This document shows, one piece after another, positions 11,793-64,000 of a stretch of 64,000 nt of DNA (positions within the stretch are counted from its first letter, which is position 1; every line of letters begins with the position of its first letter). Location of the stretch: the NCBI GenBank assembly GCA_963748625.1, contig CAVVJT010000007.1, forward strand, positions 1,216,001 to 1,280,000, in the 5' to 3' direction. The DNA comes from an uncultured Chloroflexia bacterium. GTDB taxonomy: Bacteria; Chloroflexota; Limnocylindria; Limnocylindrales; CSP1-4. The notes under the pieces are model-generated. The model worked only from the letters and a program-made list of their open reading frames with translations, had not been told where the DNA came from and did no database searches. Both the position numbers and the translations under genes were made by a program.

Positions 11793-12257
11793 CTACTCCT
11801 CCGAGTCGCCGTCGTGGGCGTGGGCCGTCGGCGGGTAGATGCCCGGCCGGTCGCCCGTCGCCTGGCCGAGGAAGCCCAGGACGGCCGACATCATCAGGTT
11901 CGTCCGGCACAGGGCGGCGACGCCCAGGTGGGCGTAGGCCTCGGCGCGGACCGGATCGTTGATCTTGGCGATGACACGCTTCGCGCCCAGCGCCTCCTGG
12001 CCCAGCTGTGCGGCCATGACGTTGCGGTTGTCGCCCTCGGTGGCCGTGAGGAACAGGTCGGCGTCCGTCGCACCAGCTCGACGCAGGGTGTCCTCGTCGG
12101 TACCGTCGCCACGTAGCGCGGTGCCGCCGAAGGCCGCCGGCAGCCGGTCGAAGGCGGACGCGGAGAGGTCAAGGATCAGGACCTGCCAGCCGGCCCGGTC
12201 CAGGTCGTCGGCCAAGCCGGCCCCGACGCGACCACAGCCGACGATGACGGCTTTCAT
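11793..12257 (-). CDS. TrkA-N domain protein (RCK_N only)
   Basis: IVGCGRVG, GDGTDED.L..AG, TEGDNRN, VIAKINDP. Confidence 0.88.
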   Translation of the reverse strand: MKAVIVGCGRVGAGLADDLDRAGWQVLILDLSASAFDRLPAAFGGTALRGDGTDEDTLRRAGATDADLFLTATEGDNRNVMAAQLGQEALGAKRVIAKINDPVRAEAYAHLGVAALCRTNLMMSAVLGFLGQATGDRPGIYPPTAHAHDGDSEE

Positions 12258-12842: not shown

Positions 12843-14963
12843 CTACTGGTCCCGATCTCCACGGGACCCGGTGCCTGGACCGCCCGCCGGAGTCCCGCCA
12901 TTCGGCCCCATCCCACTGCCCGCGACGGCCACGGCAGGCTCATGCTGCTCGCTCCGCCGGTACGGCACGTCCGCGATGACGGTGTGCTCCCGTCCGACGA
13001 GCGATGCCTTCAGGCGCTTCGCCGTCTGGTTGTAGAGCACCCGGTCCCACCAGCGACGCGCCACGTATTCGGGCAGCACCACGATCGTGGTCGGGGCCTC
13101 CCTGTCGGGCGGCCATGCCCGCTCGAGGACGTCGAGGTACGTGATCACCGGGCCCACGAGCGCGCGATAGGGAGACTCCACCACCACCAGTGGCACGCCC
13201 GGCAGCTGGCGCTCCCAGCGCTCGCGGAGCTTGTCAGCCTCCTCGATCTCGGTGGTGACGAAGACCGCCTGCAGCAGTGACGGGTCACTTGCGAGCGACT
13301 TGCCGAACATGACCGCCTGCACGACCGAGCGGTTGATCCCGTTCACCGGAATGACGACTCGCTGCTCTCGATGGGGCCGGTCGAACACCAGTTCGTCGTC
13401 CACCTCCAGCTCGATGGACTGGGCGTCGTACTGGCGCCGGATGAACAGCATCCCGCCGATCAGGGTGGGGATCAGCACCACCACCAGCCACGCGCCGGAC
13501 GTGAACTTGACGGACGTCACGACGATTGCGATGACGAGCGTGAGGAAGGCGCCGATCGCGTTGATCGTCAGCCGGTATTTCCAGCCCTGGTCCTTGGTGG
13601 TCAGCCAGTGCTTGACCATGCCGGACTGCGCGATCGTGAAGTCGATGAACACGCCCACCGCATACAGCGGGATCAGGGCGTGGGTGGAGCCGCCGCCGGC
13701 GATGACCACGAGGGCGGCCACGGTGCCCAGCAGGATGATGCCGGTGGAGTAGGCGAGCCGGTCGCCGCGGAACGCGAACTGGCGGGGCACGAAGCCGTCC
13801 TCGGCGAGGACGGCGGCCAGGCGCGGGAACGCGGCGAAGGAGGTGTTGGCGGCCAGGAACAGCAGCAGCGCGGTGAACGCCTGGAACAGGTAGAAGCCGA
13901 TCGTGTCGCCGTAGACGTGGTTGGCGATCTGGGCGATGACCGTCTGGCCGTGCGACGGCAGGATGTGGAAGCTCGAGGCCAGGAACGTGATCCCGATGAA
14001 CAGGGCGGCGAGGATGGCGGCCATCGCCATCAGCGTCCGAGCGGCGTTGCGGGACTCGGGCGGCTGGAACGCGGGCACTCCTGTCGCGATCGCCTCGGTG
14101 CCGGTGAGGGCGACGGCGCCCGACGCGAAGGCCCGGATCAGGATCAGGAACGTGACGTCGGTGGCGGTCTGGCTCATGGCCGCGATGACCTCTTCCGACG
14201 GGGCCGGGCCCGTGTCGCCCATGAACAGGATGCGGAAGGTGCCCATGCCGATCATCAGGAAGGCTGAGCCCAGGAACAGGTAGGTGGGGATCGCGAAGAT
14301 GTTCCCCGCCTCCCGCAGGCCGCGCAGGTTGCCCAGCGTGATCAGGCCGATCGCGGTCACGCCGATCACGACCTTCCAGTCGTAGAGCGCAGGCACGGCC
14401 GACGCGATCTGCTCCACCGCGGACGAGGTGGAGACCGCCACCGTGAGGGTGTAGTCGATCAGCAGCGCGGACGCGGCGATGAGCGATGCCATGCGGCCGA
14501 AGTTCGCCTTTGACACCGAGTAGGAGCCGCCGCCCGTGGGGTAGGCGTAGCAGACCTGGCGGTAGCTGAAGGCGACGATCGCGAGCAGGATCGCGATCGC
14601 GATCGCCACCTCGATCGAGAAGAAGAACGCGGCCCCGCCGACCCCCGCGGCGATGAATGCCAGCAGGATCTCCTCGGTTGCGTACGCCGAGGATGAGATC
14701 GCGTCCGAGCTGAAGATCGCGAGGGCCTTCTTCTTGGACAGGCGCTCCCCGAGCTCCTCCTCGTTGGCCAGCGGCCGTCCCAGCAGCGTGTGCTTGAGCC
14801 GCATCGTGAAGCGGCCGGTGGAGGTGGTGGGGGCGTTGGCGGCGGCCTTGGCCGTGAGCTGGCCCGGCCCGGTGTAGCGGAAGTAGGGCGAGTGGTGGCG
14901 CTCCACGCGGACGCGCTTGTCGCCGGGCTTGCGACCCTGGACTGGACGCCTGCCTCCGATCAT
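12843..14963 (-). CDS. APC-family permease, KimA/YdaO-like K+ importer
   Basis: ERLSKKKALAIFSSDAISSSAYATEEI, YPTGGGSY, GTEAI..GVPAF, LIPLYAVGVF, C-terminal SPYR..PE....WW..LYNQTA. Confidence 0.9.
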   Translation of the reverse strand: MIGGRRPVQGRKPGDKRVRVERHHSPYFRYTGPGQLTAKAAANAPTTSTGRFTMRLKHTLLGRPLANEEELGERLSKKKALAIFSSDAISSSAYATEEILLAFIAAGVGGAAFFFSIEVAIAIAILLAIVAFSYRQVCYAYPTGGGSYSVSKANFGRMASLIAASALLIDYTLTVAVSTSSAVEQIASAVPALYDWKVVIGVTAIGLITLGNLRGLREAGNIFAIPTYLFLGSAFLMIGMGTFRILFMGDTGPAPSEEVIAAMSQTATDVTFLILIRAFASGAVALTGTEAIATGVPAFQPPESRNAARTLMAMAAILAALFIGITFLASSFHILPSHGQTVIAQIANHVYGDTIGFYLFQAFTALLLFLAANTSFAAFPRLAAVLAEDGFVPRQFAFRGDRLAYSTGIILLGTVAALVVIAGGGSTHALIPLYAVGVFIDFTIAQSGMVKHWLTTKDQGWKYRLTINAIGAFLTLVIAIVVTSVKFTSGAWLVVVLIPTLIGGMLFIRRQYDAQSIELEVDDELVFDRPHREQRVVIPVNGINRSVVQAVMFGKSLASDPSLLQAVFVTTEIEEADKLRERWERQLPGVPLVVVESPYRALVGPVITYLDVLERAWPPDREAPTTIVVLPEYVARRWWDRVLYNQTAKRLKASLVGREHTVIADVPYRRSEQHEPAVAVAGSGMGPNGGTPAGGPGTGSRGDRDQ

Positions 14964-26713: not shown

Positions 26714-28915
26714 GTGGGGAAGAACGTCGCCGTCTTCGTGGACGTGGCGAACATCTTCTACGCGGCCAAAGCGGCCGGTGTGGATATCGACTACGTCACG
26801 CTGCTGAAGTCGGCCACCGCCGGACGTGATTTCGTCCGTGCGTATGCCTATACCGGGCTCGACCCGGACAACGAGAACCAGCGCAACTTCCACCAGTTCC
26901 TCGCCCGCCACCAGTACAAGGTGGTCAGCAAGGACATCCGCAAGTACGGCGACGGCAAGGTCAAGGCGAACCTCGACATCGAGCTCGTCGTCGACATGAT
27001 GAAGACGGCCCGCAACCTGGATGTGGCCGTGGTCGTGTCGGGTGACGGGGACTTCGCGCCCGCGATCCGCGCCGTCCAGGAGATGGGCGTCCGCGTCGAG
27101 GTCATCAGCTTCCGCGGCAACACGTCATCCGACCTCATGGAGGTCGCGGACCTGTTCACCGACATCTCCCACATCGCCAAGGTGGACAAGGGTTCGTCGC
27201 GCTCCGGGCGCCGTGTCTCGGACGACGACGAGGACCTGTCGATGACCGAGGTCCCCGACAAGATGACCGAGGGCACCGGCCGTGGCCGTGGCCGTGGCCG
27301 TGGCCGGGGTCGGGGTGAGGACCGCGAGGAGTCGCGTGAGACGCGGACCCGCGGTCGCGGGCGGACCACACGCTCCGAGGAGCGCGAGGAGGTCACCCCG
27401 GTCGCGCCGGTCGGGACGGCCGGCGGCCGCCTCGTCGCCCTGCCGGGCGAGAAGCTGTCGCGCGCCACGTCGGCTGCTGTCGATGAGATCGACGAGGTCG
27501 AGGAGCTCGACGAGACCGCCGCGGAGGGCACCGAGGGTGTCGAGGGCGAGCTCGAGGGCGAGGGTGACGCCCAGCGCCGCCGCCGCCGCCGCCGCGGTGG
27601 TCGCGGCCGGGGTCGTGGCCGGCGGGACGAGGGGGAGCTCGAGGCCGGTGCCGAGGGTGAGGTCGTCGAGGGCGACGAGAGCGCCGTCGCCGCTGCCGCC
27701 GACGAGGCGGACGAGGAGGAGGACGAGGACGAGGCTGTCGCCCAGGACGAGGCCTCCGAGGACGCCGAGCCCCAGGCGGCCAAGGCGCGCCCGGCCCGCA
27801 CCGACCGCGGTGGTCGTGGCAGCCCGAGCCGCACGCCTTCGGGTGAGCTGCCCACGCCGTTCGACGACATCGAGGCGCTGGCGGCTCCGCGGGCACCCCG
27901 GTCCACGCCGTTCGGGTCGGTCTGGGATCGCCAGATCGGCACGCCGGCCGCGCGGCCGGCTGCAAGCACTGCGCCGCTTGACGACGAGGAGGACCTCGAA
28001 GAGCCCGAGATCCCGGAGTACCTGCTGGCGGAGCGCCGGCGTGGTCAGGGTGGCCAGGGCAATCGCGGTGGCCAGGGCGGCAATCGCGGTGGGCGCGGCG
28101 GGCGCGGTGGCGCGTACGCGGCGGCCATCGAGCGCGAGCGCTACGGCGGCGCGCGCGGCAGTGGCACCACCACCAGCCGGTACGGCGAGCCCAACCGTGG
28201 CGGCCCGCAGGGCGGCCGTGGTGATGGCCCGCAGGGCGGCCGTGGTGGCACCCCGCAGGGTGGCCGCAGCGGAGCCGCACCGCGACCGCGCAGCGATCGG
28301 CAGGAACGACCTGACCGCGCTCCGCGACCCAGCGGTGGCGCTGAGTGGAGCGAGGTTCCGCCGGAGCTCGAGGCGATGCTCCTTGCGCAGATGAGCACCA
28401 AGGCCCCGGAGCGCACGCGCCGGCCCGCTCCTGCCGCCGGGACCGCTGCCGAGGCACCCGCCGCGGCCGCGCCGAAGCGCCGGACGACCCGCAAGGCCGC
28501 CCCGGCCGCCGAGGCCCAGGCCCCGGTGGTCCCCGCCGAGACCGCTGCCGAGGCACCCGCCGCGGCCGCGCCGAAGCGCCGGACGACCCGCAAGGCCGCC
28601 CCGGCCGCCGAGGCCCAGGCCCCGGTGGTCCCCGCCGAGACCGCTGCCGAGGCACCCGCCGCGGCCGCGCCGAAGCGCCGGACGACCCGCAAGGCCGCCC
28701 CGGCCGCCGAGGCCCAGGCCCCGGTGGTCCCCGCCGAGACCGCTGCCGAGGCACCCGCCGCGGCCGCGCCGAAGCGCCGGACGACCCGCAAGGCCGCCCC
28801 GGCCGCCGAGGCCCAGGCCCCGGTGGTCCCCGCCGAGACCGCTGCCGAGGCACCCGCCGCGGCCGCGCCGAAGCGCCGGACGACCCGCAAGGCCGCCCCG
28901 GCCGCCGAGGGCTGA
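26714..28915 (+). CDS. NYN (LabA/DUF88) domain protein with a long disordered C-terminus
   Basis: VFVDVANI, KANLDIELVVD, SGDGDF..AI...G.RVEV..F..SSDL...AD.F in the first ~160 aa; then acidic, RG-rich and repeat tracts. Confidence 0.92.
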   Translation: MGKNVAVFVDVANIFYAAKAAGVDIDYVTLLKSATAGRDFVRAYAYTGLDPDNENQRNFHQFLARHQYKVVSKDIRKYGDGKVKANLDIELVVDMMKTARNLDVAVVVSGDGDFAPAIRAVQEMGVRVEVISFRGNTSSDLMEVADLFTDISHIAKVDKGSSRSGRRVSDDDEDLSMTEVPDKMTEGTGRGRGRGRGRGRGEDREESRETRTRGRGRTTRSEEREEVTPVAPVGTAGGRLVALPGEKLSRATSAAVDEIDEVEELDETAAEGTEGVEGELEGEGDAQRRRRRRRGGRGRGRGRRDEGELEAGAEGEVVEGDESAVAAAADEADEEEDEDEAVAQDEASEDAEPQAAKARPARTDRGGRGSPSRTPSGELPTPFDDIEALAAPRAPRSTPFGSVWDRQIGTPAARPAASTAPLDDEEDLEEPEIPEYLLAERRRGQGGQGNRGGQGGNRGGRGGRGGAYAAAIERERYGGARGSGTTTSRYGEPNRGGPQGGRGDGPQGGRGGTPQGGRSGAAPRPRSDRQERPDRAPRPSGGAEWSEVPPELEAMLLAQMSTKAPERTRRPAPAAGTAAEAPAAAAPKRRTTRKAAPAAEAQAPVVPAETAAEAPAAAAPKRRTTRKAAPAAEAQAPVVPAETAAEAPAAAAPKRRTTRKAAPAAEAQAPVVPAETAAEAPAAAAPKRRTTRKAAPAAEAQAPVVPAETAAEAPAAAAPKRRTTRKAAPAAEG
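28441..28910 (+). repeat. 99-bp coding tandem repeat (~4.7 identical copies)
   Basis: Units start at 28441, 28540, 28639, 28738 and 28837, each encoding TAAEAPAAAAPKRRTTRKAAPAAEAQAPVVPAE. Confidence 0.95.
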
Positions 28916-28940
28916 CCCTCCGCATCGGGGACGATCTGAC

Positions 28941-30579: not shown

Positions 30580-30891
30580 ATGGACCGCAACCCTGCCGAC
30601 GAGCTCCCCGATCTGTACCGCAAGGTGCTCGACGCGCTGGCCCGCCTCGAGGCGGCCGGTGATCGGACCGCTGCCTACGACCTGCGCCTGCGCGCCCACC
30701 GCACCTATGCGACGCGCTGGGATGAGGGTGGCCGCCGAACGCTGCACCGGATCGCACGCGATGCCGAGGCCAGGCTGGCGTCAGGCCGCCGCACGATGCC
30801 GTCCCGGGCGCTCGCCGCGGCCGCACCCGCCTGGCGCCGCCGCCCGAGCCGCGTAGCCGCATCTGCGCCGCACCGCACCCGAGCCGCGTAG
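30580..30891 (+). CDS. Small helical hypothetical protein
   Basis: MDRNPADELPDLYRKVLD...; CACGCT 6 nt upstream of the ATG. Confidence 0.6.
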   Translation: MDRNPADELPDLYRKVLDALARLEAAGDRTAAYDLRLRAHRTYATRWDEGGRRTLHRIARDAEARLASGRRTMPSRALAAAAPAWRRRPSRVAASAPHRTRAA

Positions 30892-30961
30892 CCCGCATCT
30901 GCGCCGCACCGCACCCGAGCCGCGTAGCCCGCATCTGCGCCGCACCGCACCCGCGCCGCGT
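30843..30961. repeat. 36-bp tandem repeat (~3.3 copies)
   Basis: CCGAGCCGCGTAGCCCGCATCTGCGCCGCACCGCAC; first copy is 1 nt shorter; no spacers. Confidence 0.9.
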
Positions 30962-31014
30962 CGTCTGCGCCCGTATCCGACGCCGGCCGCCCGGCGTGCC
31001 GTACGCTGGGCCCG

Positions 31015-40406: not shown

Positions 40407-40642
40407 GGGTCATTGTCGCGTGGACGCGCAAGGCACGCCGTAGCTGGCCCATGGCGGCGTCCCGGGTGTTCTCCGTCCTGTGCGAGCGGCCGATCGCGTC
40501 CGTGGAGAGGGTGCACATGGGCGCCTAGAACGTTGACACCGCTCCCGGAGACAGACGACGAGGGTCCCGATCGCGCCTCGGCCGCGGTGAGGACTCTCGC
40601 GAGCGCCGTTGACGGTGCTCGAGCGGGCGGTGGTCGTGCGGG

Positions 40643-42257: not shown

Positions 42258-42941
42258 TCACCCCGCCCCCACGCCCGCGAGCACGGGTGTCGCGGCGACC
42301 GGCTCCTCCACCGGCGCTGTCCGCACCGCGCCACGAACGAACTGGAGGCCCAGCCGGGTCGGCATGTCGACGACGGAGACGTCGGTGAAGCCCGCCTCTT
42401 CCATCATCCGCCGCATCGCATCCACGCTCCACTGCCACTGGCCGAATGCATCGACCTTGCCCGACCGGCCCCACTTGTCGACCTGCTTGTCGATGGTGAT
42501 CACCAGCCGACCGCCGGGCCGCAGCACCCGCCGCATCTCCCGTAGCGCCTTGGCGGGATCCGGGACGAACTTCAGGCAGTTGAGTGATGACGCGACGCTG
42601 AAGCGGCCGTCCTCCCACGGCAGCGTCATGGCATTGCCCAGGACGATCTCGGCCGTCCCTGCTGCAATGCGGTCGGCCAGCCGCTTCCGGGCCATCCCGA
42701 CCTGGATCTCCGACGCATCCAGGCCGGCGACGTGGCGGACGTGCGCCGCCTGATCCGCGAGCAGCCTCGCGGACCCGCACCCGATATCGAGAAGATCGTC
42801 GTCGGGCTGGAGGCGGAGCTCGGCCGCAAGCATCGGATAGAGCGGCCCGACCATCTTCGGCATCAGTCGCGCACCGGCCGATCCGAGTGGACCGTGTGGC
42901 ACCCCGAAGAACGGGAGCCAGAACGACCTGCGCAGGCCCAT
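42258..42941 (-). CDS. Class I SAM-dependent methyltransferase
   Basis: LLDIGCGSA, GLDASE, LPWEDGRF, EMRRVLRPGGRL; start ATG 42941. Confidence 0.9.
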   Translation of the reverse strand: MGLRRSFWLPFFGVPHGPLGSAGARLMPKMVGPLYPMLAAELRLQPDDDLLDIGCGSARLLADQAAHVRHVAGLDASEIQVGMARKRLADRIAAGTAEIVLGNAMTLPWEDGRFSVASSLNCLKFVPDPAKALREMRRVLRPGGRLVITIDKQVDKWGRSGKVDAFGQWQWSVDAMRRMMEEAGFTDVSVVDMPTRLGLQFVRGAVRTAPVEEPVAATPVLAGVGAG

Positions 42942-43259
42942 CGCGCTGCCCTCCATGCGCGAGCGGGTCGGTCTCGCCAGTTGCTCGGCGCGGTCCCGGC
43001 GGCCGGAGCATGGGCCGCGCGTCAGAGCATCCCGCGTGTGCAGCCGCACGCTCGCAGAGCCAGGACGTGATGCCTAGAGGCTTTCGACCTGATCCCCGCC
43101 CGACCCTGCCCGTCCGCCCAGCCCGGACCCACGTTCAAGCGACCTCCACCCCGCCGTGAGGGCAACGTCCGATGGCGGAGGTGAATGGATTGGGCGACGT
43201 CACACAACCGGTGTGTGTTGTGATGCTCGACGGCATCTACTTCAACGACCGGCCGGTTG

Positions 43260-54248: not shown

Positions 54249-55500
54249 CTATGTGCGACCGTCGGACCGGCCGACTCGCCGATATGGCACCTGGAGCACG
54301 ATGAGTTCCGGGCGTCCGATGAGCGCCTCCCGGAGGCGATGCGCGTTCTGGTTGTAGAGCATGCGCTCCCACCAGTGCCGGGGTACGTATTCCGGAATGA
54401 GAACGACGATGACCTCTGCGGGGCGCTCGGCTTGCTGCGTCTCGACGTAGCGTACGAACGGATTGACGAGTGCCCGGTGGGGCGAGTCAATGATGATCAC
54501 GGTCGCCGCAGGCTCGTGCCGGGCCACCAGTTGCCGGAACCGCTCACCCTCGGCCCTGTCCGACGTCACATGAACCACCTGCACGCTGCTTGCCATCGTC
54601 TGCCCAACGCCGATGGCCTGCACCAGAGCACGCGTGAAGTCCAGCGCGGCGACGATCACCAGCTCGCCCCCAGGTGGCGCGATCACGCCCCGTGTCCGGA
54701 CCGTCAGGGCCGCCGCCTCGAGCCCGTACGCGCGATGGATGAAGAGCATGAGCGCGACAGGACCGGAATGACCACGATGACGATCCAGGCGCCAAGCGCC
54801 GAATTTGGCGATCACGAAGGTGACGACCACGAGGCCGGTGGCGATGGCTCCCACCCCGTTCAACGTGGCGCTGCGGCGGCCAGCCCGGTCCGTGCTGTGT
54901 GAACCAGTGGCGCACCATGCCTGACTGCGAGAGCGTGAATGCCGTGAATACGCCGATCGCGTACAGCGGGATGAGCGCCTCGACCTGCGCGTTGAACGCG
55001 ACAACGAGCAGGATCGATACGGCCGCAAGGACCAGGATCCCGGCGTTGAACGCCAGACGCTCCCCACGGAAGGCGAACTGGTGTGGCATGTACCCGTCCC
55101 GGGCGAGGAGCGACGCAACGCGAGGGAAATCGGCGAAGCTCGTCTGCGCGGCGAGGATCAGGATGCCCATCGTGGCGAACCGAAGGACGTACCACAGGGG
55201 TCCTGGGCCGTAGACGGAGCGCCCGATCTGTGACAGAACGGACTCGCCGCTCATCGCGGGCATCGCCCCCGTGACCTGAGCGAGAAACGACGTGCCAAGG
55301 AAGAGGCTGGCGAGCAGGATCGTCACGATGAACATGGTCGTTCGCGCGTTCCGCCACTCGGGGGGCCTGAACACGGGAACGCCGTTCGCGACAGCCTCGG
55401 TTCCCGTCATGGCCGTACACCCGTCCGCGAAGGCGCGCATGAGGAACAACAGGCCGAACGTCTCGACGGGGGTGCGCCGACCGCGCCCGGGATCGCCGGG
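54249..55500 (-). pseudogene. Second KimA-like APC permease, 5'-truncated and frameshifted
   Basis: RAFADGCTAMTGTEAVANGVP.F, LIPLYAIGVF, then shifts frame to SPHR..IPEYVPRHWWERMLYNQ; the N-terminal third is missing. Confidence 0.85.
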
Positions 55501-55786
55501 CTGCGGCAGCGCCCGGCACGGTGGAGACGACCGCTGGCGTCGTCACGGTCACGGTCGCCCGGCATGGCGGCTGCCGGCCGGGTCGCACAACCCGCTTGCG
55601 CGGGCACCTCCCGCGGCGCATCGTGTCCCACTTCGGGTCCACCCTCAACGGGGCAGTCGAGCAGTCCGAGAAGGGAGGCGACGGCAAGGGCGGGAGCCCG
55701 GAGCGGGGCTGGTTCACTCCACGTCGGGGCGACGGAGCCCAGGCACGGGAGACAGGCGAGCACACCTCGGCAAGGGCGGGGCGGTT

Positions 55787-55863
55787 TGGCGCGCCCGACA
55801 GGATTCGAACCTGCAGATGCCACCATTATCGTGCGGGTCCCGATCGCGCCGCGGCCGTGGTGA
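55787..55863. mobile_element. att-like site 1: tRNA 3'-end fragment plus element arm
   Basis: Reverse complement of 55787-55815 is TGCAGGTTCGAATCCTGTCGGGCGCGCCA (T-arm, acceptor strand, CCA; tRNA-Arg-like); no 5' half. Confidence 0.8.
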
Positions 55864-55898
55864 CCGGACCAGACCCAGGCGATGACGACCCTCCCGGA

Positions 55899-57164
55899 TC
55901 AGGCTCCTAGGGCGCCGACCGCCACCTGGAGGACGCCGTCGGGCCGTGTGAACGAGTACCCAGTCCCCGTGATGACGACGAGCGCAACCGGCGGCCGCCC
56001 TGCCACCCGGTCGCGCAGGCGCAAGAGGCCTGCTGCCGCGGGATCGACGACGGAGGCGTGGGACCCGAGCTTGACCTCGAAGGCGGCCCAGTCGCCGCCG
56101 GGCAGCTCGATCACGGCGTCCGCCTCGAGGCCCGCAGCGTCCCGGTAGTGGTAGATCCGGCCCCTGAGCGGCCCGGCGAGGACCCGCAGGTCGCGTACGA
56201 CCAGGGATTCGAACAGCAGGCCCATCAGGTTGAGGTCGGCCAGCAGGGCGTCTGGGCCAGCCCCGAGGGCCGCCACCGCTAGTGACGGGTCGGCCAGGTG
56301 GCGGACGGGCGAGGCTCGCAGGCGGGTCCTGCTCCGCAGGCTGGGGCTCCATGCGGGGAGGTCATCGGTCAGCAGCAGGCGGTCGAGCGCCCCGAGGTAG
56401 GCACGGGCGGTCTCCACCTTCATCGAGCGGTCGGCGCCGGTGTCTGCCGCGAGGCCCTCCGCGCTCACAGGGCAGGCCGTGTTGCGGGCCAGCGAGGTCA
56501 GGAGCGCACGCACGCCCGCGGGATCCCGCCGCACACCATCGACACGCGGCACGTCGAGCCGGCAGACATCCTCGAGATAGCCCTCGTTGAGGAGGGAGGC
56601 CTGCGCCGGAGTCAGGCCCAGGTTGCCCGGCCATCCGCCGACCACCAGCCGCTCCGCGAGGTCGCCGACCCGGAGCCCGGGATCCGGCGCGCTCACCGGC
56701 TCGCCTGCGAGCACCCGTGCCAGCGAGACCGACCTCGTCGAGTGGCCACTCTCCACGAGTGCCATCGGGCGCATCCGGAGGCGGATGAAGCGGCCCGCAC
56801 CCGAATGCCGCCGCGCGTCGTCCCGGGGCACCGACGAGCCGGTGAGCACGAACTGGCCCGGCGCCCGGCGATCGTCGACCTCGTGGCGCACCAGGTTCCA
56901 GAGGTCCGGCACCTCCTGCCACTCGTCGATGAGGCGCGGCGTCGCGCCGGCGAGCACGAGGGCTGGGTCGACGGCGAACGCCTGTTGGGCGGCGGGCGTG
57001 TCCATGCGGATCTCGCTGGTCGCCGCCTGGCGGGCGGTCTCCGTCTTCCCGCAGGCCCGGGGTCCCTCGATGACGACGGCTCCAGCCGCTCCGAGTGTCT
57101 CGTGGAGCTGGGCGTCTATCACCCGCTGCCGGTACTCGTGGAGGGGCGGATCAGGGGTCGTCAC
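55899..57164 (-). CDS. AAA+ ATPase with DUF4143 domain
   Basis: EGPRACGKT, LIDEWQ, LTGS, GAGR, FESLVVRDL, YHYRD..GLEADAV, FEVKLG; start GTG 57164. Confidence 0.9.
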   Translation of the reverse strand: MTTPDPPLHEYRQRVIDAQLHETLGAAGAVVIEGPRACGKTETARQAATSEIRMDTPAAQQAFAVDPALVLAGATPRLIDEWQEVPDLWNLVRHEVDDRRAPGQFVLTGSSVPRDDARRHSGAGRFIRLRMRPMALVESGHSTRSVSLARVLAGEPVSAPDPGLRVGDLAERLVVGGWPGNLGLTPAQASLLNEGYLEDVCRLDVPRVDGVRRDPAGVRALLTSLARNTACPVSAEGLAADTGADRSMKVETARAYLGALDRLLLTDDLPAWSPSLRSRTRLRASPVRHLADPSLAVAALGAGPDALLADLNLMGLLFESLVVRDLRVLAGPLRGRIYHYRDAAGLEADAVIELPGGDWAAFEVKLGSHASVVDPAAAGLLRLRDRVAGRPPVALVVITGTGYSFTRPDGVLQVAVGALGA

Positions 57165-57213
57165 GTGCCCATTGTCGAGGCCAGCCGCCGTTGCGTCAAT
57201 CCCAAGGGATCGG

Positions 57214-57261
57214 CTTGCAGATCCAACGGGGGGTTGCCTTGCAGTGTTGACAGGGGGTTGC
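57214..57261. repeat. 24-bp direct repeat upstream of the DUF4143 ATPase
   Basis: CTTGCAGATCCAACGGGGGGTTGC / CTTGCAGTGTTGACAGGGGGTTGC. Confidence 0.6.
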
Positions 57262-57540
57262 GGGCCCACGTTCGCGCGGGCTTGCGCTGGCCGCGGAGGT
57301 GCGACAACCGGTCGGCAAGGCGGGCCAGCCGGAGGCATCGGGCTCGTAATGAACAAATCTGCGCGAATCCGTTAGCAGCGATCTCCCTAATGAACGGTCT
57401 TGACGACGGGACCCCTGCGAGATGGCGGGAGCGGGACCTGCCCGTTCGCCGCCGACGCGGTGCCCTTCGCGCATCGTGATCGAGGCCTGCATGGCACCGC
57501 ACCCCAGCGGCTGCCCGTCGGTCCGCACGAGGAGCGACAG

Positions 57541-57711
57541 ATGCAGGAAGACCGCATCGAGGCCGACCCGCCGACGGGCGACCAGCCTGCCACTCCGGGC
57601 GGCAGCGACCGGCTCATCGCCGCCCCTGCGGCCGTGATCCATGACGCGATGGCAGCCGACGATGCCGCCGGGCGGGACCTGCCGCTGTCGGGCGAGGAGG
57701 ACGAGGACTGA
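57541..57711 (+). CDS. Small acidic hypothetical protein
   Basis: GAGGAG RBS 6 nt before the ATG; 56 aa. Confidence 0.4.
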   Translation: MQEDRIEADPPTGDQPATPGGSDRLIAAPAAVIHDAMAADDAAGRDLPLSGEEDED

Positions 57712-58073
57712 CGCCACGACGACCACGCCTCGGATCAGGGGAGCGCCCGGCTCGCCTCAGTCGTCTGAAGACTGCGCAATGCGCCCGCGATCACGCTCGT
57801 CCGCGACGACCAGCGGCCAGTCCCAGAGTCCCGCCTCGGCGATACGGGCCTTGTCGCCCACAACGACACACAACTCGCTTGCTCGGACATTCCCCGCAGC
57901 GCATCGTGTCTCACGTCGGGTGACACCGGCAGGGAAGTCAAGCACAGGGAGTAGGGAGGCAACCGAAGAGCAGGTGCCCGGGCCAGGGATGGTCGCCACT
58001 GCTGGACGCCAACGGGCTACAGAGCCGGGACGGTAAGAGAGCACACGAGACCGAGGGGAGAGGCGGGGTGGTT

Positions 58074-58150
58074 TGGCGCGCCCGACAGGAGTCGAACCTG
58101 CAGATGCCACTATTTTCGTGAAGGTCCCGATTGCGCCGCGCCCGTGGTGA
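58074..58150. mobile_element. att-like site 2: tRNA 3'-end fragment plus element arm
   Basis: Reverse complement of 58074-58102 is TGCAGGTTCGACTCCTGTCGGGCGCGCCA; direct repeat of 55787-55863. Confidence 0.8.
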
Positions 58151-58621: not shown

Positions 58622-59425
58622 TCACCACCTGCGGTCAGGGTAGCCGCGTCGCTTCTTCTGAGCAGGGATGGCAGCCGCGTATGCGCGAATGCCGCTCCAT
58701 GCAGCGTGATACCTGTCAGCGTCCTCGGCGAGCCGCCCCTCGATCCACTCCTCAAGCGCTTTGACGGGCAGGAGGACCCGCTTGCCGATGCGCAGGCTCG
58801 GGATCGTGCCCGCAGCAGCAAGCGACCCGACGGTGGAGGTGGAGAGCCCGAGCACTCGGGAGGCGTCGGCGACCGAGATCAGCAGTGGCTCCATACCTAC
58901 GGCGAAGCGCTCTTCTGCTGGCGCCACCACTTCAGGGCCCTCCCTTGACTTCGCTTGCGGCTCAGCCGGTGCGGACGGCGGTGGCTGTGCCCAAGGGTCG
59001 TCCAACTCGCGATGTTCTGGCCGCGAGACGTGGTAGCTCATCGCGACGGGGTCGATGAGCAGGGCGCACCTCAGGCAGATCCGCTTCGGGGACGGAGCGT
59101 CCTCAGGCAACTGGCGGACGAGCCTCTCGATAGCGATGCCGACCTGGCGGGCCTCCACGCGGAGTGACGCGCCTCCCCCAAGGTTCGCGATCCCCACCCA
59201 TACGTTGTCCGGACGCCGGAAGACACCGCTCTCGCCGTGCGCGAGGCCGAAGTGACGGCCCTCCGGATCGATTGGCCGGATCCGATCCGGCGAGATCGCC
59301 CGGGGTGCGATCACGCACTCCCTGTGCGCCTGGGAGTTGAGGTGCCGATCCCAGTCGCGCCACAGCCTCCACGTCACGACCACATCGCAAACGGCACAGA
59401 AACTCACGCGCTCGACCGCCGCCAT
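58622..59425 (-). CDS. Excisionase-like HTH protein with two C2H2-type fingers
   Basis: C-terminal LLISVADASRVLGLS.STV..L...G.IPS.RIGKRVLLP...LEEW (HTH_17-like); two CxxC...HxxxxxH motifs; start probably 59425. Confidence 0.75.
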   Translation of the reverse strand: MAAVERVSFCAVCDVVVTWRLWRDWDRHLNSQAHRECVIAPRAISPDRIRPIDPEGRHFGLAHGESGVFRRPDNVWVGIANLGGGASLRVEARQVGIAIERLVRQLPEDAPSPKRICLRCALLIDPVAMSYHVSRPEHRELDDPWAQPPPSAPAEPQAKSREGPEVVAPAEERFAVGMEPLLISVADASRVLGLSTSTVGSLAAAGTIPSLRIGKRVLLPVKALEEWIEGRLAEDADRYHAAWSGIRAYAAAIPAQKKRRGYPDRRW

Positions 59426-59560: not shown

Positions 59561-60082
59561 GTGAAGTGGCGACGTTCGATTACCGGCCCTCGGCTGCCTG
59601 AGCAAGTGCGCCAGCACGCCCCCATCCCGGAGGTCGTCGCTGCTCGACTGCTCCGGTATGACGGCGACCGGCCCCTATACCTGGATCTGCTCCAGTTTGG
59701 GAGCGGGCCTGTGGGAGTCATGGAGGAGGACTACCCATACTGGGTCATCCGGGATGCCGAAGGTCGCGTGGTGGGTGGCGCGAAGGTGATGCGCATGCCG
59801 GCTGGTCACCCGGTGTCGCTCGACGTCGCCATCGCGCCGGACCGTCAAGGCCTTGGGTGGGCGACCGCCCTCTACGATGCGTTGACGGCGCGTGGGATCG
59901 ACGTCGAGGCAGGCTCATCAGCTTCGCTCGCCCACGGGACGATGACCCTCGACGGCTACCTCTTCATGCGAGCTCGGCGTCTGCGGACCGACCCGGACGC
60001 CGAGGCCCAGATGGTCGCCGAGGCCAACGTTTGCCCGATGTGCGGTCCCTTGGACGAGCCCAGGGCCCAGGCGGACGAGTAG
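59561..60082 (+). CDS. GNAT-family acetyltransferase
   Basis: DVAIAPDRQGLGWATALY motif A; C-terminal CPMC; start uncertain. Confidence 0.65.
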   Translation: MKWRRSITGPRLPEQVRQHAPIPEVVAARLLRYDGDRPLYLDLLQFGSGPVGVMEEDYPYWVIRDAEGRVVGGAKVMRMPAGHPVSLDVAIAPDRQGLGWATALYDALTARGIDVEAGSSASLAHGTMTLDGYLFMRARRLRTDPDAEAQMVAEANVCPMCGPLDEPRAQADE

Positions 60083-60116: not shown

Positions 60117-61349
60117 TCAGTAGTCCTCCGCGAGTCGATCCAGGTCGGCGACGCTCAGGATCTCCGAGTGCAGGACGCTTCGCGGATCGTCCGACAGCGG
60201 GAGGCCGAAATACAGCACGCCGATGTTCCGCGTCACCATCTTCCGGAGGCGGCTCGCCGCGATGCTGGCGCCGAAGGGACCTTTCGCGTTCATTCGCGCG
60301 GTGGACACCACGGAGAGATGGCCTGCGGCGCGATTGCTGAACGCCCACCGCCACTCGGGGATGCCTCGGATGTAGATGTCCCCGGGCAGCACGCCGATGA
60401 CGACGCTGTTCGGGTCGGCGGCTTCCAGATAGAGGGATGGCAGCAGCCCGATCAGGTCTTCGGCAGCCATCTGGCGGCGCACCGGGTCCACCAGGCTCGC
60501 CGGGACGGGAGCGGGCGGGAGGATAGCGACATCGAGGTCGTACCGGACCTTGTAGAAGTCGGCCAGGTCCTGCAGGTCCGCTGCGGCAAGCCCACCGAGC
60601 GGGGCGAGGTAGACGGTCCTGCCCGGCGGGTGGATCGGGACGACCGCTGCGCGACCTCCCGGCGGCAGACTCGTGATGCCTGTCGCGACACCGCCGATGC
60701 CGATCACGATGCACGCTGCTGCCGCGACGACCCCAACCCAGAATCCGCCTCGGACGATCGCTGCGCGCTTCTTCCGGCGCTCAGCAGCCGGCCCTCGGAG
60801 GGTGTCCCAGTTGGCGGCGAGTAGGGCGACTCGTTCCTGCCAGGGCTGCCAGTCATCGGCCACAGCCCCGGATCGCTGGCGGTCCGCCCACTCGACATCA
60901 CCTTCCGCGAGCCCATCTGCAAGCGAGGCCCAGGCGCTACTGGGCGCTGGGGCCGTTACCGTATGGCGCCAGCGAGCCTTGCCGGCAGCGGACTCTTCAC
61001 TGCCCCAGGCGGCAGCAATGAAGGGCTGACGCGCCAGGATGATGGCCTCATCGAATGTCCACGCCGGCAGCCTGTCGCCGAGAAGCAGGCGATCCTCCAG
61101 CGACTTCGGGAGACCCAGCCCGAACGTCACCGCGCCGGCGATGAGAAACGCGCCGACGATGATGGCCACGTCGTCGGCGTCCGTGATGAACGTCGAGTCG
61201 AGGCCGGACCTCGCGATCGTCACGGGGACGAGCAGCACTAGGAGCCCTGCGAAGACCGCCCATAGGGCGTCACGCCTGCGGACCGCAGCGGCCGCGAACG
61301 CCCCGGCAAGCGCCAAGACGCCAACGATCCCGCCGAGCGTCATGAGCAC
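60117..61349 (-). CDS. Membrane protein fused to an archaemetzincin-like domain lacking HExxH
   Basis: About 4 TMs, then VYLAPLG, RRQ..AE.L, IGV...DIY, VVSTARM, RLRKMVTRNIG.LYFGL. Confidence 0.7.
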   Translation of the reverse strand: MLMTLGGIVGVLALAGAFAAAAVRRRDALWAVFAGLLVLLVPVTIARSGLDSTFITDADDVAIIVGAFLIAGAVTFGLGLPKSLEDRLLLGDRLPAWTFDEAIILARQPFIAAAWGSEESAAGKARWRHTVTAPAPSSAWASLADGLAEGDVEWADRQRSGAVADDWQPWQERVALLAANWDTLRGPAAERRKKRAAIVRGGFWVGVVAAAACIVIGIGGVATGITSLPPGGRAAVVPIHPPGRTVYLAPLGGLAAADLQDLADFYKVRYDLDVAILPPAPVPASLVDPVRRQMAAEDLIGLLPSLYLEAADPNSVVIGVLPGDIYIRGIPEWRWAFSNRAAGHLSVVSTARMNAKGPFGASIAASRLRKMVTRNIGVLYFGLPLSDDPRSVLHSEILSVADLDRLAEDY

Positions 61350-61444
61350 GTCCCGAAGCTGACGACGCCGAACACGACCGCCGCCGTCGCGTGGTGCATC
61401 ACGACGTGAGCGAGTTGATCGCTGAACAATCAGCCCTGACGCCG

Positions 61445-62440
61445 CTACTCAGCACGCGCCTGCGCCAAGGCGGCCGCTTGGGCATCACCCGGACGAAGTG
61501 ATCCGATCTCCCACAGTCGGAACACGACGCGGGCGAGGGTGGCGAGAGCCCAGGACAGATCAATCGCGACGGGAGTCGCGACCTCAGGCGACACCTGCCA
61601 TCTCCCGCCGATCGAGCGGGTAGCTTCTCCGAGGGTGTCGGTCAGCCGAGCAAAGTCGGCCGGTGGTAGTCCGAGGGCGATTGGCGTGACCCATGCCGAC
61701 AGGACCTTCAGGCGACGGCCCGTCACGTCGAACTGCTCGGCGAGTGCGCGATCGTTGGCGACGATCGCCCGATGGTCCGTCGATCCCGTCCCGGCCCCGC
61801 GGTATGGGGGCCGGTATGAGGCTGGTCGAGGGTCCTGCAAGCGGGGAGTCACTCGCCCGAGCATTATCCCTAGCGCGATCGAGGCGGCTTCCCTCGCCTC
61901 GGAGAGCTTTCCATCCGACATGCACCCCTCTGCTTCGATCATCTTGGCGGCGAGGTCCGGCGCGTCGACCTGGGACGCGACGGCGCGGAGGAGGCCTGCT
62001 CCGCTGGGAAGCACCGACAGGGCCGGCAGCGCTCGGCTCAGGATCTCCAGGAGCCCGGAGACTGCCAGCTGGGCCTCTTCGACGTCGCGTTGAGTGGCGT
62101 CATCGCCGTTGTGGACGACACCGTTCCGCCGCGTGTGTGTAAGGCGGATGACGCGGGCCAGGGTGCTTGGGATCGGGGTACCGGCCGAGGCGGACATCCT
62201 GGTCGCCAGTGCCAGCAAGTCTTCGTGGTGCGCCTTGGCCTTGACCGGTTCGCCGACCTGATCGGCAAGGATGCCCAGGATGGCCTCTGCTGCGGTATCG
62301 GCCGAGACGAGTGCCGCGCCCGCGCTCACTGGAGACAGGCTGGTGGCGAGCTCGCTAGAGGAGGACGCCAGCGACACGGCGATGAGCCAGCGTCGAACGA
62401 TGATCGCGTCAAGACGTGTAGCTTGCGGGTCTGTGACCAT
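61445..62440 (-). CDS. Hypothetical protein with a HEPN-like RxxxxH motif
   Basis: Helical protein; D.AAE..L upstream and RRNGVVH motif (62111-62128); divergent from hsdM. Confidence 0.6.
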
Positions 62441-62524
62441 CTCGCTGCAAGTGTAGATGCGACCCCTCGGTGTGGGCGTGAGCGCTACCCTGCGATAACG
62501 CGTGACATCGGGAGGAGCGGACGC

Positions 62525-64000
62525 TTGGGGGACTCAGGACTCAACAACCACGCAGGGCTGATCTGGTCGATCGCCGACCTGCTCCGCGGTGACTACAAGC
62601 AGTCCGAGTACGGCCGCGTCATCCTGCCGCTCGTCGTGCTGCGCCGGCTCGACTGCGTGCTCGAGCCCACCAAGGCCCAGGTCCAGAAGCGCCTGGAGAC
62701 CGCGATCGGTCGAGAACGTCGGCGTCCTGCTCCGCGCGATCACCGGGCTCGATGTCTACAACACGAGCCGCCTCACCCTGCGGACGATCCTCGCCGACCC
62801 GGCCCAGGTCGCCGGCAACCTGCGCGCCTGGATCGCGGGCTTCGACCCCGACACCCGCGACGTCATCGAGAAGTTCGACTTCGACGCCCAGATCGGGCGG
62901 CTCGACCGGGCCAAGATCCTGTACCTCGTGCTGTCGCAAGGTGACCGAGGTCGACCTCCACCCGGACACCGTCAGCAACACCGAGATGGGCTACCTCTAC
63001 GAGGAGCTCGTCCGCCGCTTCTCCGAGCTCTCCAACGAGACCGCGGGCGAGCACTTCACGCCGCGCGAGGTCATCCGCCTGATGGTGGACCTCCTGTTCA
63101 TCGAGGACGACGAGGCCCTGCGCACCCCGGGCATCGTGCGCACCCTGCTCGACCCCGCGTGCGGCACGGGCGGCATGCTCTCGGTGGCGGCCGACCACCT
63201 GCATGCGCTCAACCCGGGCGCCCACCTCGAGGCGTACGGCCAGGAGCTCAACGCCGAGACGTACGCCGTCGGCCGCTCGGACATGATGCTCAAGGGCCAG
63301 GACGGCGCGGAACATCCGCCTCGGCAACAGCTTCAGCGAGGACCAGCTTCAAGGGCGAGCGCTTCGACTACTGCCTCGCCAATCCGCCGTTCGGGGTGGA
63401 GTGGAAGAAGGTCGAGCGCGAGGTCCGCGACGAGGCCGACAAGCTCGGCTTCAAGGGCCGCTTCGGCGCCGGCACTCCCGCGCATCAACGACGGCTCGTT
63501 CCTGTTCCTCCAGCACATGATCAGCAAGCTGAAGGCACCGGCCGAGGGCGGTGGCCGCCTGGCCATCGTCTTCAACGGCTCGCCGCTGTTCACCGGCGGC
63601 GCGGGCAGCGGCGAGAGCGAGATCCGGCGCTGGATCATCGAGAACGACTGGCTCGAGGGCATCGTCGCCCTGCCCGACCAGCTCTTCTACAACACCGGCA
63701 TCAGCACCTACTTCTGGATCGTCACCAACCGCAAGCGCCCCGAGCGCCGGGGCCTTGTCCAGCTGGTGGACGCGCGCGAGCTCTTCACCAAGATGCGCAA
63801 GTCCCTGGGCGAGAAGCGCAAGGCGATCAGCGACGACCAGATCGGCGAGATCGCGCGCCTCTACGGCGACTTCACCGAGGGCGAGCGCGTCAAGATCCTG
63901 CCCAACGAGGCCTTCGGCTTCCAGCGGATCACGGTCGAGCGGCCGCTGCGCAAGCGCTACTCCGTGCCGGCCGACTTCAGGACTGTCGCGACGCAGGCAC
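62525..64000 (+). pseudogene. hsdM: Type I restriction-modification methyltransferase (HsdM), multiply frameshifted as assembled; runs off window
   Basis: [66 protein letters not shown] (63381), FNGSPLFTG, LPDQLFYNTGI; frame changes near 62705, 62937, 63305, 63345 and 63474. Confidence 0.92.

Follow-up and report, generated by a model that had tools for sequence, protein, structure and literature searches.

The excisionases and recombination directionality factors (RDFs) that are built on an HTH_17-type helix-turn-helix (HTH), among them Pukovnik Xis (4j2n), RdfS (8dgl), the GIsul2 excisionase (8c3t), Tn916 Xis (1y6u) and TorI (1z4h), are single-domain proteins of 55–100 residues, usually encoded beside the integrase. 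C2H2 zinc fingers of the U1/JAZ type, which bind RNA duplexes, are regarded as essentially eukaryotic. Here we analyze a bacterial gene whose 267-residue product, P0001, has a C-terminal domain of the first class preceded by two Cys/His knuckles that probably belong to the second. The gene lies in a 64,000-nucleotide stretch of DNA (the window; contig CAVVJT010000007.1, positions 1,216,001–1,280,000, hereafter part of contig C7) from an uncultured bacterium of the order Limnocylindrales, Chloroflexota. The HTH_17/Xis class itself is known; what is new is a putative zinc module joined to a protein of this class. In our literature search, no excisionase-type protein was described as having C2H2 fingers. 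One report merely names, among the genes of a Frankia element, a separate ‘C2H2-like protein’ (PMC3218068).

The coding sequence of P0001 occupies window positions 58622–59425 on the minus strand, stop codon included, as delimited from the open reading frame, base composition, homologue alignment and the ratio of nonsynonymous to synonymous changes (pN/pS). The longest open reading frame extends upstream to a GTG at 59617. The homologues start at a Met equivalent to that of MAAVER, which is the start chosen in the initial annotation, and DNA homology to the closest orthologue, in genome G036, ends 13 nt before this ATG and exactly at the stop codon. The strings quoted in the initial annotation are all present in the translation: C10-A-V-C13, 14 residues, H28-LNSQA-H34; HGESGVFRRPDNVWVG at residues 63–78; C117-L-R-C120, 11 residues, H132-VSRPE-H138; and then the C-terminal HTH_17 domain. 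That annotation also considered that the true start might lie just upstream of the HTH. Measured against two orthologues, pN/pS is 0.16–0.17 for residues 1–146, 0.46–0.63 for the linker and 0.24–0.35 for the HTH part. The N-terminal 146 residues are under purifying selection, which argues that translation does not begin just upstream of the HTH. The G+C content at third codon positions is 0.77–0.93 across the N-terminal part, as expected of coding sequence (G+C of the window, 70%). M178, five residues ahead of the HTH, is invariant among the homologues; a short internal product may start there, but is needed to explain none of the observations.

Finger 1 spans residues 6–40 (59306–59410, minus strand), with the pattern C10-x2-C13-x14-H28-x5-H34 and a predicted β-hairpin and kinked helix; finger 2 spans residues 113–141 (59003–59089, minus strand), with C117-x2-C120-x11-H132-x5-H138. 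Conservation of the ligands was evaluated in a 19-row alignment (A3), counting only rows with letters at all four ligand columns. The C-C-H-H ligands of finger 1 are kept in 13 of 14 such rows, the exception being P0019, in which the first His is replaced by Gln. For finger 2 they are kept in 11 of 14 rows, and the three exceptions (P0015, P0021 and P0022) are short predicted proteins whose similarity to the family stops altogether at this finger. The spacer lengths within both fingers are constant among the rows. The two fingers can be aligned with each other at their His knuckles, over nine columns (E = 1e-4). Judged from the alignment, the paired Cys/His pattern exceeds chance, and the conservation on which the initial annotation depended is present.

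To which class the fingers belong is less sharply defined. Against Pfam, finger 1 scores 14.1 bits with zf-C2H2_jaz (PF12171; cut-off 22.6, E = 0.056) and 13.5 bits with zf-met (PF12874; cut-off 21.2, E = 0.098). Finger 2 has no Pfam match to either family, and a whole-protein Pfam scan at E ≤ 1 found neither in any family member. The predicted structures have a mean predicted local distance difference test score (pLDDT) of 56.1 for the full-length protein and 52.4 for the N-terminal part alone. Both low-confidence models have the same secondary structure: a hairpin and broken helix at residues 6–39, two strands and a helix at 66–103, and a hairpin and broken helix at 114–139. When the model of residues 1–43 (pLDDT 52) is compared with PDB representatives, fingers of the U1C/JAZ/TUT1/Mod5 type rank at the top, with Z scores of only 3.9–3.0; the chains are 7vpx_N from the human pre-A spliceosome complex, JAZ, TUT1, the Mod5 finger, 8r7n_E from the U11 snRNP, SF3a subunits and ZFa. 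Foldseek of the N-terminal model against the PDB gave 0 matches at E ≤ 0.001, with U1/JAZ-class fingers among the non-significant rows. As modeled, both fingers are probably of the U1/JAZ kind, and we infer that they bind zinc. The U1/matrin/JAZ designation first given to them agrees with the conserved ligand pattern; the Pfam scores, which fall below the cut-offs, and the top fold matches, with their low Z scores, support it weakly.

Between the fingers, residues 58–106 (59108–59254, minus strand) form the best-conserved part of the protein, GLxxGESxVFRRPDGxWxGxAxLGxGA..., predicted to fold as strand-strand-helix. The initial annotation had likened this segment to the arm-binding domain of integrases. 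A Pfam search at E ≤ 10 with residues 55–110 and 1–146 found no Arm-DNA-bind family, and the middle segment matched no Pfam family at this threshold. When the family profile (A4) was aligned by hhalign with an integrase carrying PF14657, nothing in the middle segment was matched; only 20 columns of the HTH were aligned, with a probability of 0.1. Because just 2 genomes among 151 from the order contain PF14657, and a word-based search from one such integrase gave a single protein, this is a comparison of a profile with one sequence only. The model of the segment has a pLDDT below 50, and its fold matches are scattered, with none consistent. The resemblance to an arm-binding domain is at the level of the sequence pattern only, and none of these comparisons supports the assignment.

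In contrast to the fingers, the C-terminal domain is assigned with scores above threshold. A Pro/Ala-rich linker at residues 147–177 (58895–58987, minus strand), variable in the alignment, of low pLDDT and under relaxed selection, leads to a winged HTH of the HTH_17/excisionase family at residues 183–231 (58733–58879, minus strand), which is followed by a long C-terminal helix and a basic tail at residues 232–267 (58625–58732, minus strand; alignment and model). The winged HTH matches HTH_17 (PF12728) with E = 2.4e-10 and 40.9 bits (cut-off 27), the NCBIfam excisionase-family DNA-binding model TIGR01764 ‘excise’ with E = 5e-9 and 36.4 bits (cut-off 28.8), and PHROG 66, ‘excisionase and transcriptional regulator’, at 9.1e-9. 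PF12728 is matched by 10 of the 19 rows of A3; the other nine are the N-terminal-only query from the window and shorter fragments. The model of residues 178–250 (pLDDT 76–82) is closest to Rpp of an E. coli island (6hn7_B, Z = 8.4), and the second-best fold match is BldC (Z = 7.2, root-mean-square deviation 1.2 over 51 residues). Among directionality factors, it matches Pukovnik Xis (Z = 6.8), RdfS (6.4), the GIsul2 excisionase (5.9), Tn916 Xis (4.9) and TorI (4.4). RdfS is also the sole match of the family profile against PDB sequences, at E = 0.23. The C-terminal domain is an excisionase-class winged HTH. The protein is therefore composite, as first proposed, with conserved paired Cys/His knuckles ahead of an HTH_17/Xis-like domain.

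Very few proteins belong to this family: among 5.8 billion protein clusters, 13 were found at E ≤ 0.001, one of them the query. When residues 1–146 alone were run exhaustively with HMMER against 1.84 billion representatives, there were 11 matches, each a family member or a fragment of one; at this sensitivity the N-terminal module is therefore found in no other architecture. Searching the PDB sequences with the N-terminal 146 residues returned a chance match only (maltose transacetylase, E = 1.4), and in the ESM Atlas the best hit of residues 1–146 is a viral cluster at a cosine of 0.75, which is below the useful level. None of 50,697 phage records was matched by the N-terminal part in tblastn at E ≤ 10, PHROGs hold no family for it, and no Pfam model covers the module. 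Among 401 genomes of the order, a set to which G036 does not belong, the N-terminal search found three matches besides the source genome. The match in G388 is a fragment at a contig end, and that in G080 is borderline (E = 9.6e-4) and not interpretable. In G191, from another genus, a decayed remnant of the family lies at about 5581–5931 of contig C25 (L024:1396–1746, minus strand); the second half of finger 1 is retained there, together with the sequence as far as VLHRPD..IGLA, but the Cys pair and the HTH are missing.

P0001 is encoded beside a putative attachment (att) site. An 89-nt direct repeat is found at 58062–58150 and 55775–55863, both on the minus strand and 91% identical to each other. 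The repeats hold 28–30 nt of the 3′ end of tRNA-Arg(CCG), with no mismatch over 28 nt in copy 1 (55787–55814) and one in copy 2 (58074–58101). We regard copy 2 as marking the end, distal to the tRNA, of the element in which the gene resides. The distance from the stop codon to copy 2 is 471 nt, in agreement with the roughly 0.5 kb to the second att site given in the initial annotation; the gene is transcribed towards the repeat on the same strand and is the last gene before it. The sole intact copy of tRNA-Arg(CCG) in the genome is on contig C8, in the same strand orientation. The window holds no tRNA gene, and Rfam models run on 39000–64000 match neither a tRNA nor any structured RNA family beside the gene. 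Adjoining the intact tRNA-Arg on C8 is a 515-residue serine recombinase. The tyrosine integrase that had been expected in linkage with the gene is not found near it on C7. In the source genome, the attR arm and the tRNA flank on C8 have no run of at least 11 nt in common. Contigs from four sequencing runs were short, low-depth pieces, none of which joined across the two att repeats; the best-matching DNA run contained 0.21 of the sampled words, and no RNA run was among the matching runs listed. A joint at 58877–59354 among the run contigs (side 22, a single contig) was not usable.

The same gene borders a tRNA-derived repeat in a second genome, G036, with a different tRNA. The G036 orthologue is 81% identical and is followed 1.3 kb further on, on the same strand, by 45 nt that exactly repeat the 3′ portion of tRNA-Thr(CGT); the shared repeat extends to 52 nt. 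The intact tRNA-Thr is 85.8 kb away, and a 311-residue tyrosine recombinase starts 140 nt from it. At both of the two loci with enough flank, the gene thus adjoins an att repeat. The G036 recombinase is Xer-like, consisting of SAM-like and catalytic domains only, and is about 86 kb from the zinc-finger gene. The link to a tRNA-targeting tyrosine integrase is therefore not supported in the source genome; a tyrosine integrase beside the tRNA is seen only in G036, at that distance from the gene.

Only two regions are homologous between the elements of the source genome (G000) and G036: the zinc-finger gene (80.5% nucleotide identity) and a 10.6-kb cluster resembling Tad and type IV secretion systems (T4SS; 76%), which encodes a T4SS-pilin-like protein, a CpaF/VirB11-type ATPase, TadE and RcpC proteins. 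A core-genome origin of this cluster was considered and dropped: only 10 of the genus's 41 genomes carry it, there are several copies in G036, and it is accessory. The cargo between the gene and the cluster is unrelated in the two elements, comprising type I restriction-modification, Schlafen/AlbA_2 and an SDH protease in G000, and SNF2-NOV_C, DUF1156/DUF499 and a TIR protein in G036. The neighbors at locus L007, like those in G036, are of the conflict type, ARPP-1 being a further member of this set. In the single-contig genome G006, a 25-nt fragment of tRNA-Arg(CCG) and the intact tRNA bracket 98.5 kb that include the same Tad/T4SS-like cluster. The G006 serine recombinase is 49% identical to that on C8 and again overlaps tRNA-Arg(CCG), and about 7 kb from the distal tRNA fragment is a different HTH_17 protein of 400 residues with Cys pairs. 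By analogy with the layout of the G006 element, C7 and C8 are probably parts of a single element at least about 90 kb long.

Two further observations concern the junctions of these elements. At C8:27368–28926 (L002:9368–10926) and in G006 at about 1303429–1304954 of contig C1 (L034), the large serine recombinase frame runs through the element/tRNA junction into the antisense of tRNA-Arg(CCG), so that its C-terminus would change on excision. In G036, the 10-mer CCTGCTAWCT has only three copies in 122,463 bp searched on both strands, all pointing the same way and all on the element's side of the 52-nt tRNA-Thr att cores. They are at about 131052, 216666 and 216728 of contig C64 (L006, about 12026–12041; L032, about 13660–13745); one copy is separated from the attR core by about 55 nt, and the other two are no further than about 80 nt from the attL core. 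By sequence, these repeats look like arm-type sites.

Based on these comparisons, we tentatively suggest that the product of the gene is a backbone protein of a large integrative element whose insertion site is the 3′ end of a tRNA gene. The C-terminal winged HTH of the Xis/RDF class would bind DNA. The N-terminal 146 residues would form a family-specific module of a zinc knuckle, a β-rich segment and a second zinc knuckle, each knuckle being a C2H2 unit with H-x5-H spacing that, as a finger of the U1/JAZ kind, would grip double-stranded nucleic acid. Excision would join the element ends, after which the zinc-finger gene and the recombinase gene would flank attP within 2–3 kb. Genes flanking attP at this distance are the usual layout of a recombination module. 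The excisionase-class fold together with this layout makes an accessory role of the Xis/RDF type the best reading: P0001 would bind the adjacent att arm as a directionality or architectural factor and promote or control excision, and the zinc module would add a second contact with nucleic acid or protein. DNA binding at att and an effect on recombination are what we infer for P0001. Although we place it ahead of the alternatives, we hold this assignment, an accessory factor of the Xis/RDF class encoded next to attP once the element is circular, as a candidate with less than even confidence.

Several observations weigh against it. The two orthologues, 81% identical, are found with different tRNA targets and different recombinase classes, a serine recombinase with tRNA-Arg here and a tyrosine recombinase with tRNA-Thr in G036, a distribution that would not be expected of an RDF tightly co-evolved with its integrase. 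On C7 there is no tyrosine integrase nearby and no recombinase of any class within 300 kb. The ends of C7 and C8 do not overlap, so that the join of the two contigs is putative. With 267 residues, P0001 is three to four times the size of a classical Xis. HTH_17 domains occur in plain regulators as well, as the matches to BldC and to mad1 (E = 5.7e-6) illustrate, and the zinc-finger assignment rests on models with a pLDDT of 52–56. Shared 10- to 12-mers between the att-proximal and promoter flanks of the orthologous loci are within the range of shuffled sequence, and the G036 10-mer CCTGCTAWCT is absent from the arms of the source genome.

A bolder view, which we consider a long shot, is that the N-terminal module is a detachable arm-binding unit, so that arm binding and Xis function would be fused in one protein usable in trans by different recombinases. 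The zinc-finger/HTH protein would bind arm repeats, or tRNA-derived core DNA prone to hairpins, and deliver the higher-order synapse and its directionality in trans. Since the G036 integrase has no arm-binding domain yet arm-like repeats are present, another protein may read them, and the zinc-finger protein is a candidate. The absence of these repeats from the arms of the source genome makes the link to arm reading speculative.

An alternative to the Xis/RDF-type role, possible and nearly as likely, is that P0001 is a plain regulator of element transcription, similar to AlpA or BldC. Its HTH_17 domain would bind element promoters, for example of transfer or recombinase genes, without a direct role in the synapse, and the zinc module would mediate oligomerization or contacts with partners. 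The rank of BldC among the fold matches is consistent with such a role, as are the many MerR-type regulators further down the list. The occurrence of the same protein with two recombinase classes fits a regulator better than an integrase-specific partner; in addition, the gene co-occurs with the Tad/T4SS-like cluster in both elements and is divergent from its neighbor, with 235 nt between them. However, no DNA motif is conserved upstream or downstream between the orthologous loci, the flanking genes are not conserved either, and the position at the element end next to att in two elements resembles a recombination module after circularization. If P0001 is a regulator, its target could also be the adjacent defence cargo, as with the C-protein of restriction-modification systems or mad1 of the MADS system. 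The HTH (residues 182–233) does match PADLOC mad1, a type I methylase and restriction subunit are encoded 3–9 kb away, and conflict-type neighbors recur in G036 and L007. Control of the defence cargo nevertheless seems improbable: the match to mad1 is that of a generic HTH only, the methylase fits type I models far better than mad2 (4.6e-177 versus 1.2e-21), and the gene is retained although the cargo is wholly different between the two genomes. The locus does not qualify as a MADS system, the methylase being an ordinary type I enzyme and no neighbor being conserved in G036.

The nature of the fingers raises the question whether P0001 acts on RNA or on a structured nucleic acid, with the fingers binding double-stranded RNA, a tRNA-like hairpin or an RNA–DNA hybrid and the HTH being secondary. 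The best structural neighbors of finger 1 are all RNA-duplex-binding fingers, but they are reached with Z scores of only 3.9–3.0 from a model with a pLDDT of 52, and the Pfam finger scores are below their cut-offs. The C-terminal domain, in contrast, is a DNA-binding fold with scores above threshold, and no structured RNA family is found beside the gene in the Rfam scan of 39000–64000. We consider a primary function in RNA binding the least likely of these possibilities.

Around the gene, a small GNAT acetyltransferase-like gene, part of the element cargo, is divergent from it at 59660–60082 (plus strand). From 60117 to 64000 is the start of the variable cargo, identified by Pfam and PADLOC, which continues past the window: open frames with no Pfam match at 60117–61349 and 61445–62440 (both minus strand), then the type I restriction-modification methylase from 62752 onward (plus strand). 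On the other side, an AAA_14/DUF4143 ATPase at 55899–57356 (minus strand; Pfam, PADLOC), the PADLOC candidate PDC-S01 (E = 4.1e-67), is the only gene identified in the module of about 2.3 kb at 55775–58150 that the two 89-nt repeats bracket. By sequence, this module looks like an integrase-less, cis-mobilizable unit in tandem with the larger element. A motif, CACC(A/G)CGG...GCGCGATCGGGACC, is present at 40562–40590, 55835–55863 and 58122–58150 of the window, three copies within 18 kb, two inside the att repeats and one between unrelated genes. One more is just outside attR in G036, at about 130890 of C64. The loose form of the pattern has only six matches genome-wide, and its recurrence is unexplained. 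To the left of att copy 1, the region 54249–55449 has no Pfam match; it shows 73% identity over 94 nt to the amino-acid permease gene at 12843–14963 and matches several places in G036, and is possibly a decayed paralogue of the permease gene.

Elsewhere in the window, the Rfam model RF03169 identifies a c-di-GMP-II-GAG riboswitch aptamer at 42957–43041 (minus strand), with 76.3 bits (gathering threshold 40) and E = 5.5e-14. The aptamer is located where the open frame of an S-adenosylmethionine-dependent methyltransferase gene (42258–43049, minus strand) has its 5′ end, and is thus probably the leader of that gene. Tandem units of 99 nt, with copies 93–99% identical, occur at 28335–28928 inside an open frame encoding 733 residues (26714–28915, plus strand), and three tandem units of 36 nt at 30857–30964. 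About 20–55 kb past the right end of the window (L004, L005), the G+C content of C7 falls from about 0.73 to 0.61–0.65, and the genes there, LptE, an ExbD/TolR-like protein, TPR proteins and an N-acetylglucosaminidase, are odd for the lineage. This region is either foreign cargo or a chimeric join; the estimated contamination of the bin is 7.7%. In G036, at about 11761–11810 of contig C94 (L021), a tRNA-Arg(CCG) is seemingly interrupted after the anticodon loop, its 5′ 40 nt being followed by unrelated sequence. ARAGORN calls no tRNA at this site, and the contig ends 0.9 kb beyond.

Two U1/JAZ-type fingers kept by purifying selection and joined to an excisionase fold, in a bacterial protein encoded beside the att site of an 86–98-kb island, would represent a new domain architecture for recombination accessory factors, and a tractable case of how such fingers read nucleic acid in bacteria. 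The gene also marks large tRNA-integrated elements, a family of which little has been described, in a lineage that has itself received little study; they have a common Tad/T4SS-like cluster and interchangeable defence cargo. Given the size of the protein family, general impact would be limited unless the idea of arm binding in trans is right.

Comparison with known systems shows in what respects P0001 is different. With the AP2-like arm-binding domain of tyrosine integrases (Arm-DNA-bind_4, PF14657), the middle segment shares the pattern G-E-S-x-V-F-R-R-P-D-G-x-W followed by two predicted strands and a helix; it differs from that domain in having no match by hidden Markov model, profile alignment or fold. 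The 400-residue HTH_17 protein of G006 (L029:8513–9715, minus strand) is likewise encoded close to the end away from the tRNA in a related element that has the Tad/T4SS-like cluster, and it has Cys pairs, and its HTH is homologous to that of P0001 (hhalign E = 2e-9, 40% identity over 53 residues). Its order is reversed, however, with the HTH first and the Cys-rich part last, and the two proteins have no similarity outside the HTH. BldC of Streptomyces (6amk) and small MerR-like regulators have an HTH core whose fold is very close to that of P0001, but BldC lacks zinc fingers and is a developmental regulator encoded on the chromosome, and we know of no link between it and att sites. With the U1-like, matrin and JAZ fingers (JAZ, 2mkn; TUT1, 9j8p; Mod5, 3eph; and those of the spliceosome and snRNPs), P0001 shares the C-x2-C...H-x5-H arrangement, an aromatic residue before the first Cys, the tail H-x-x-S-x-x-H-R/K-E, and the predicted hairpin and kinked helix. 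The usual spacer of such fingers is 12 residues; those of P0001 are 14 and 11, and its fingers differ further in their bacterial host and in their fusion to a DNA-binding HTH. Finally, P0001 resembles the HTH_17 excisionases and RDFs in its DNA-binding fold, in the family models that it matches, and in the location of its gene on a tRNA-integrated element next to att. In contrast to these single-domain proteins, it carries a putative zinc module of 146 residues and is encoded at the end of the element opposite the recombinase.

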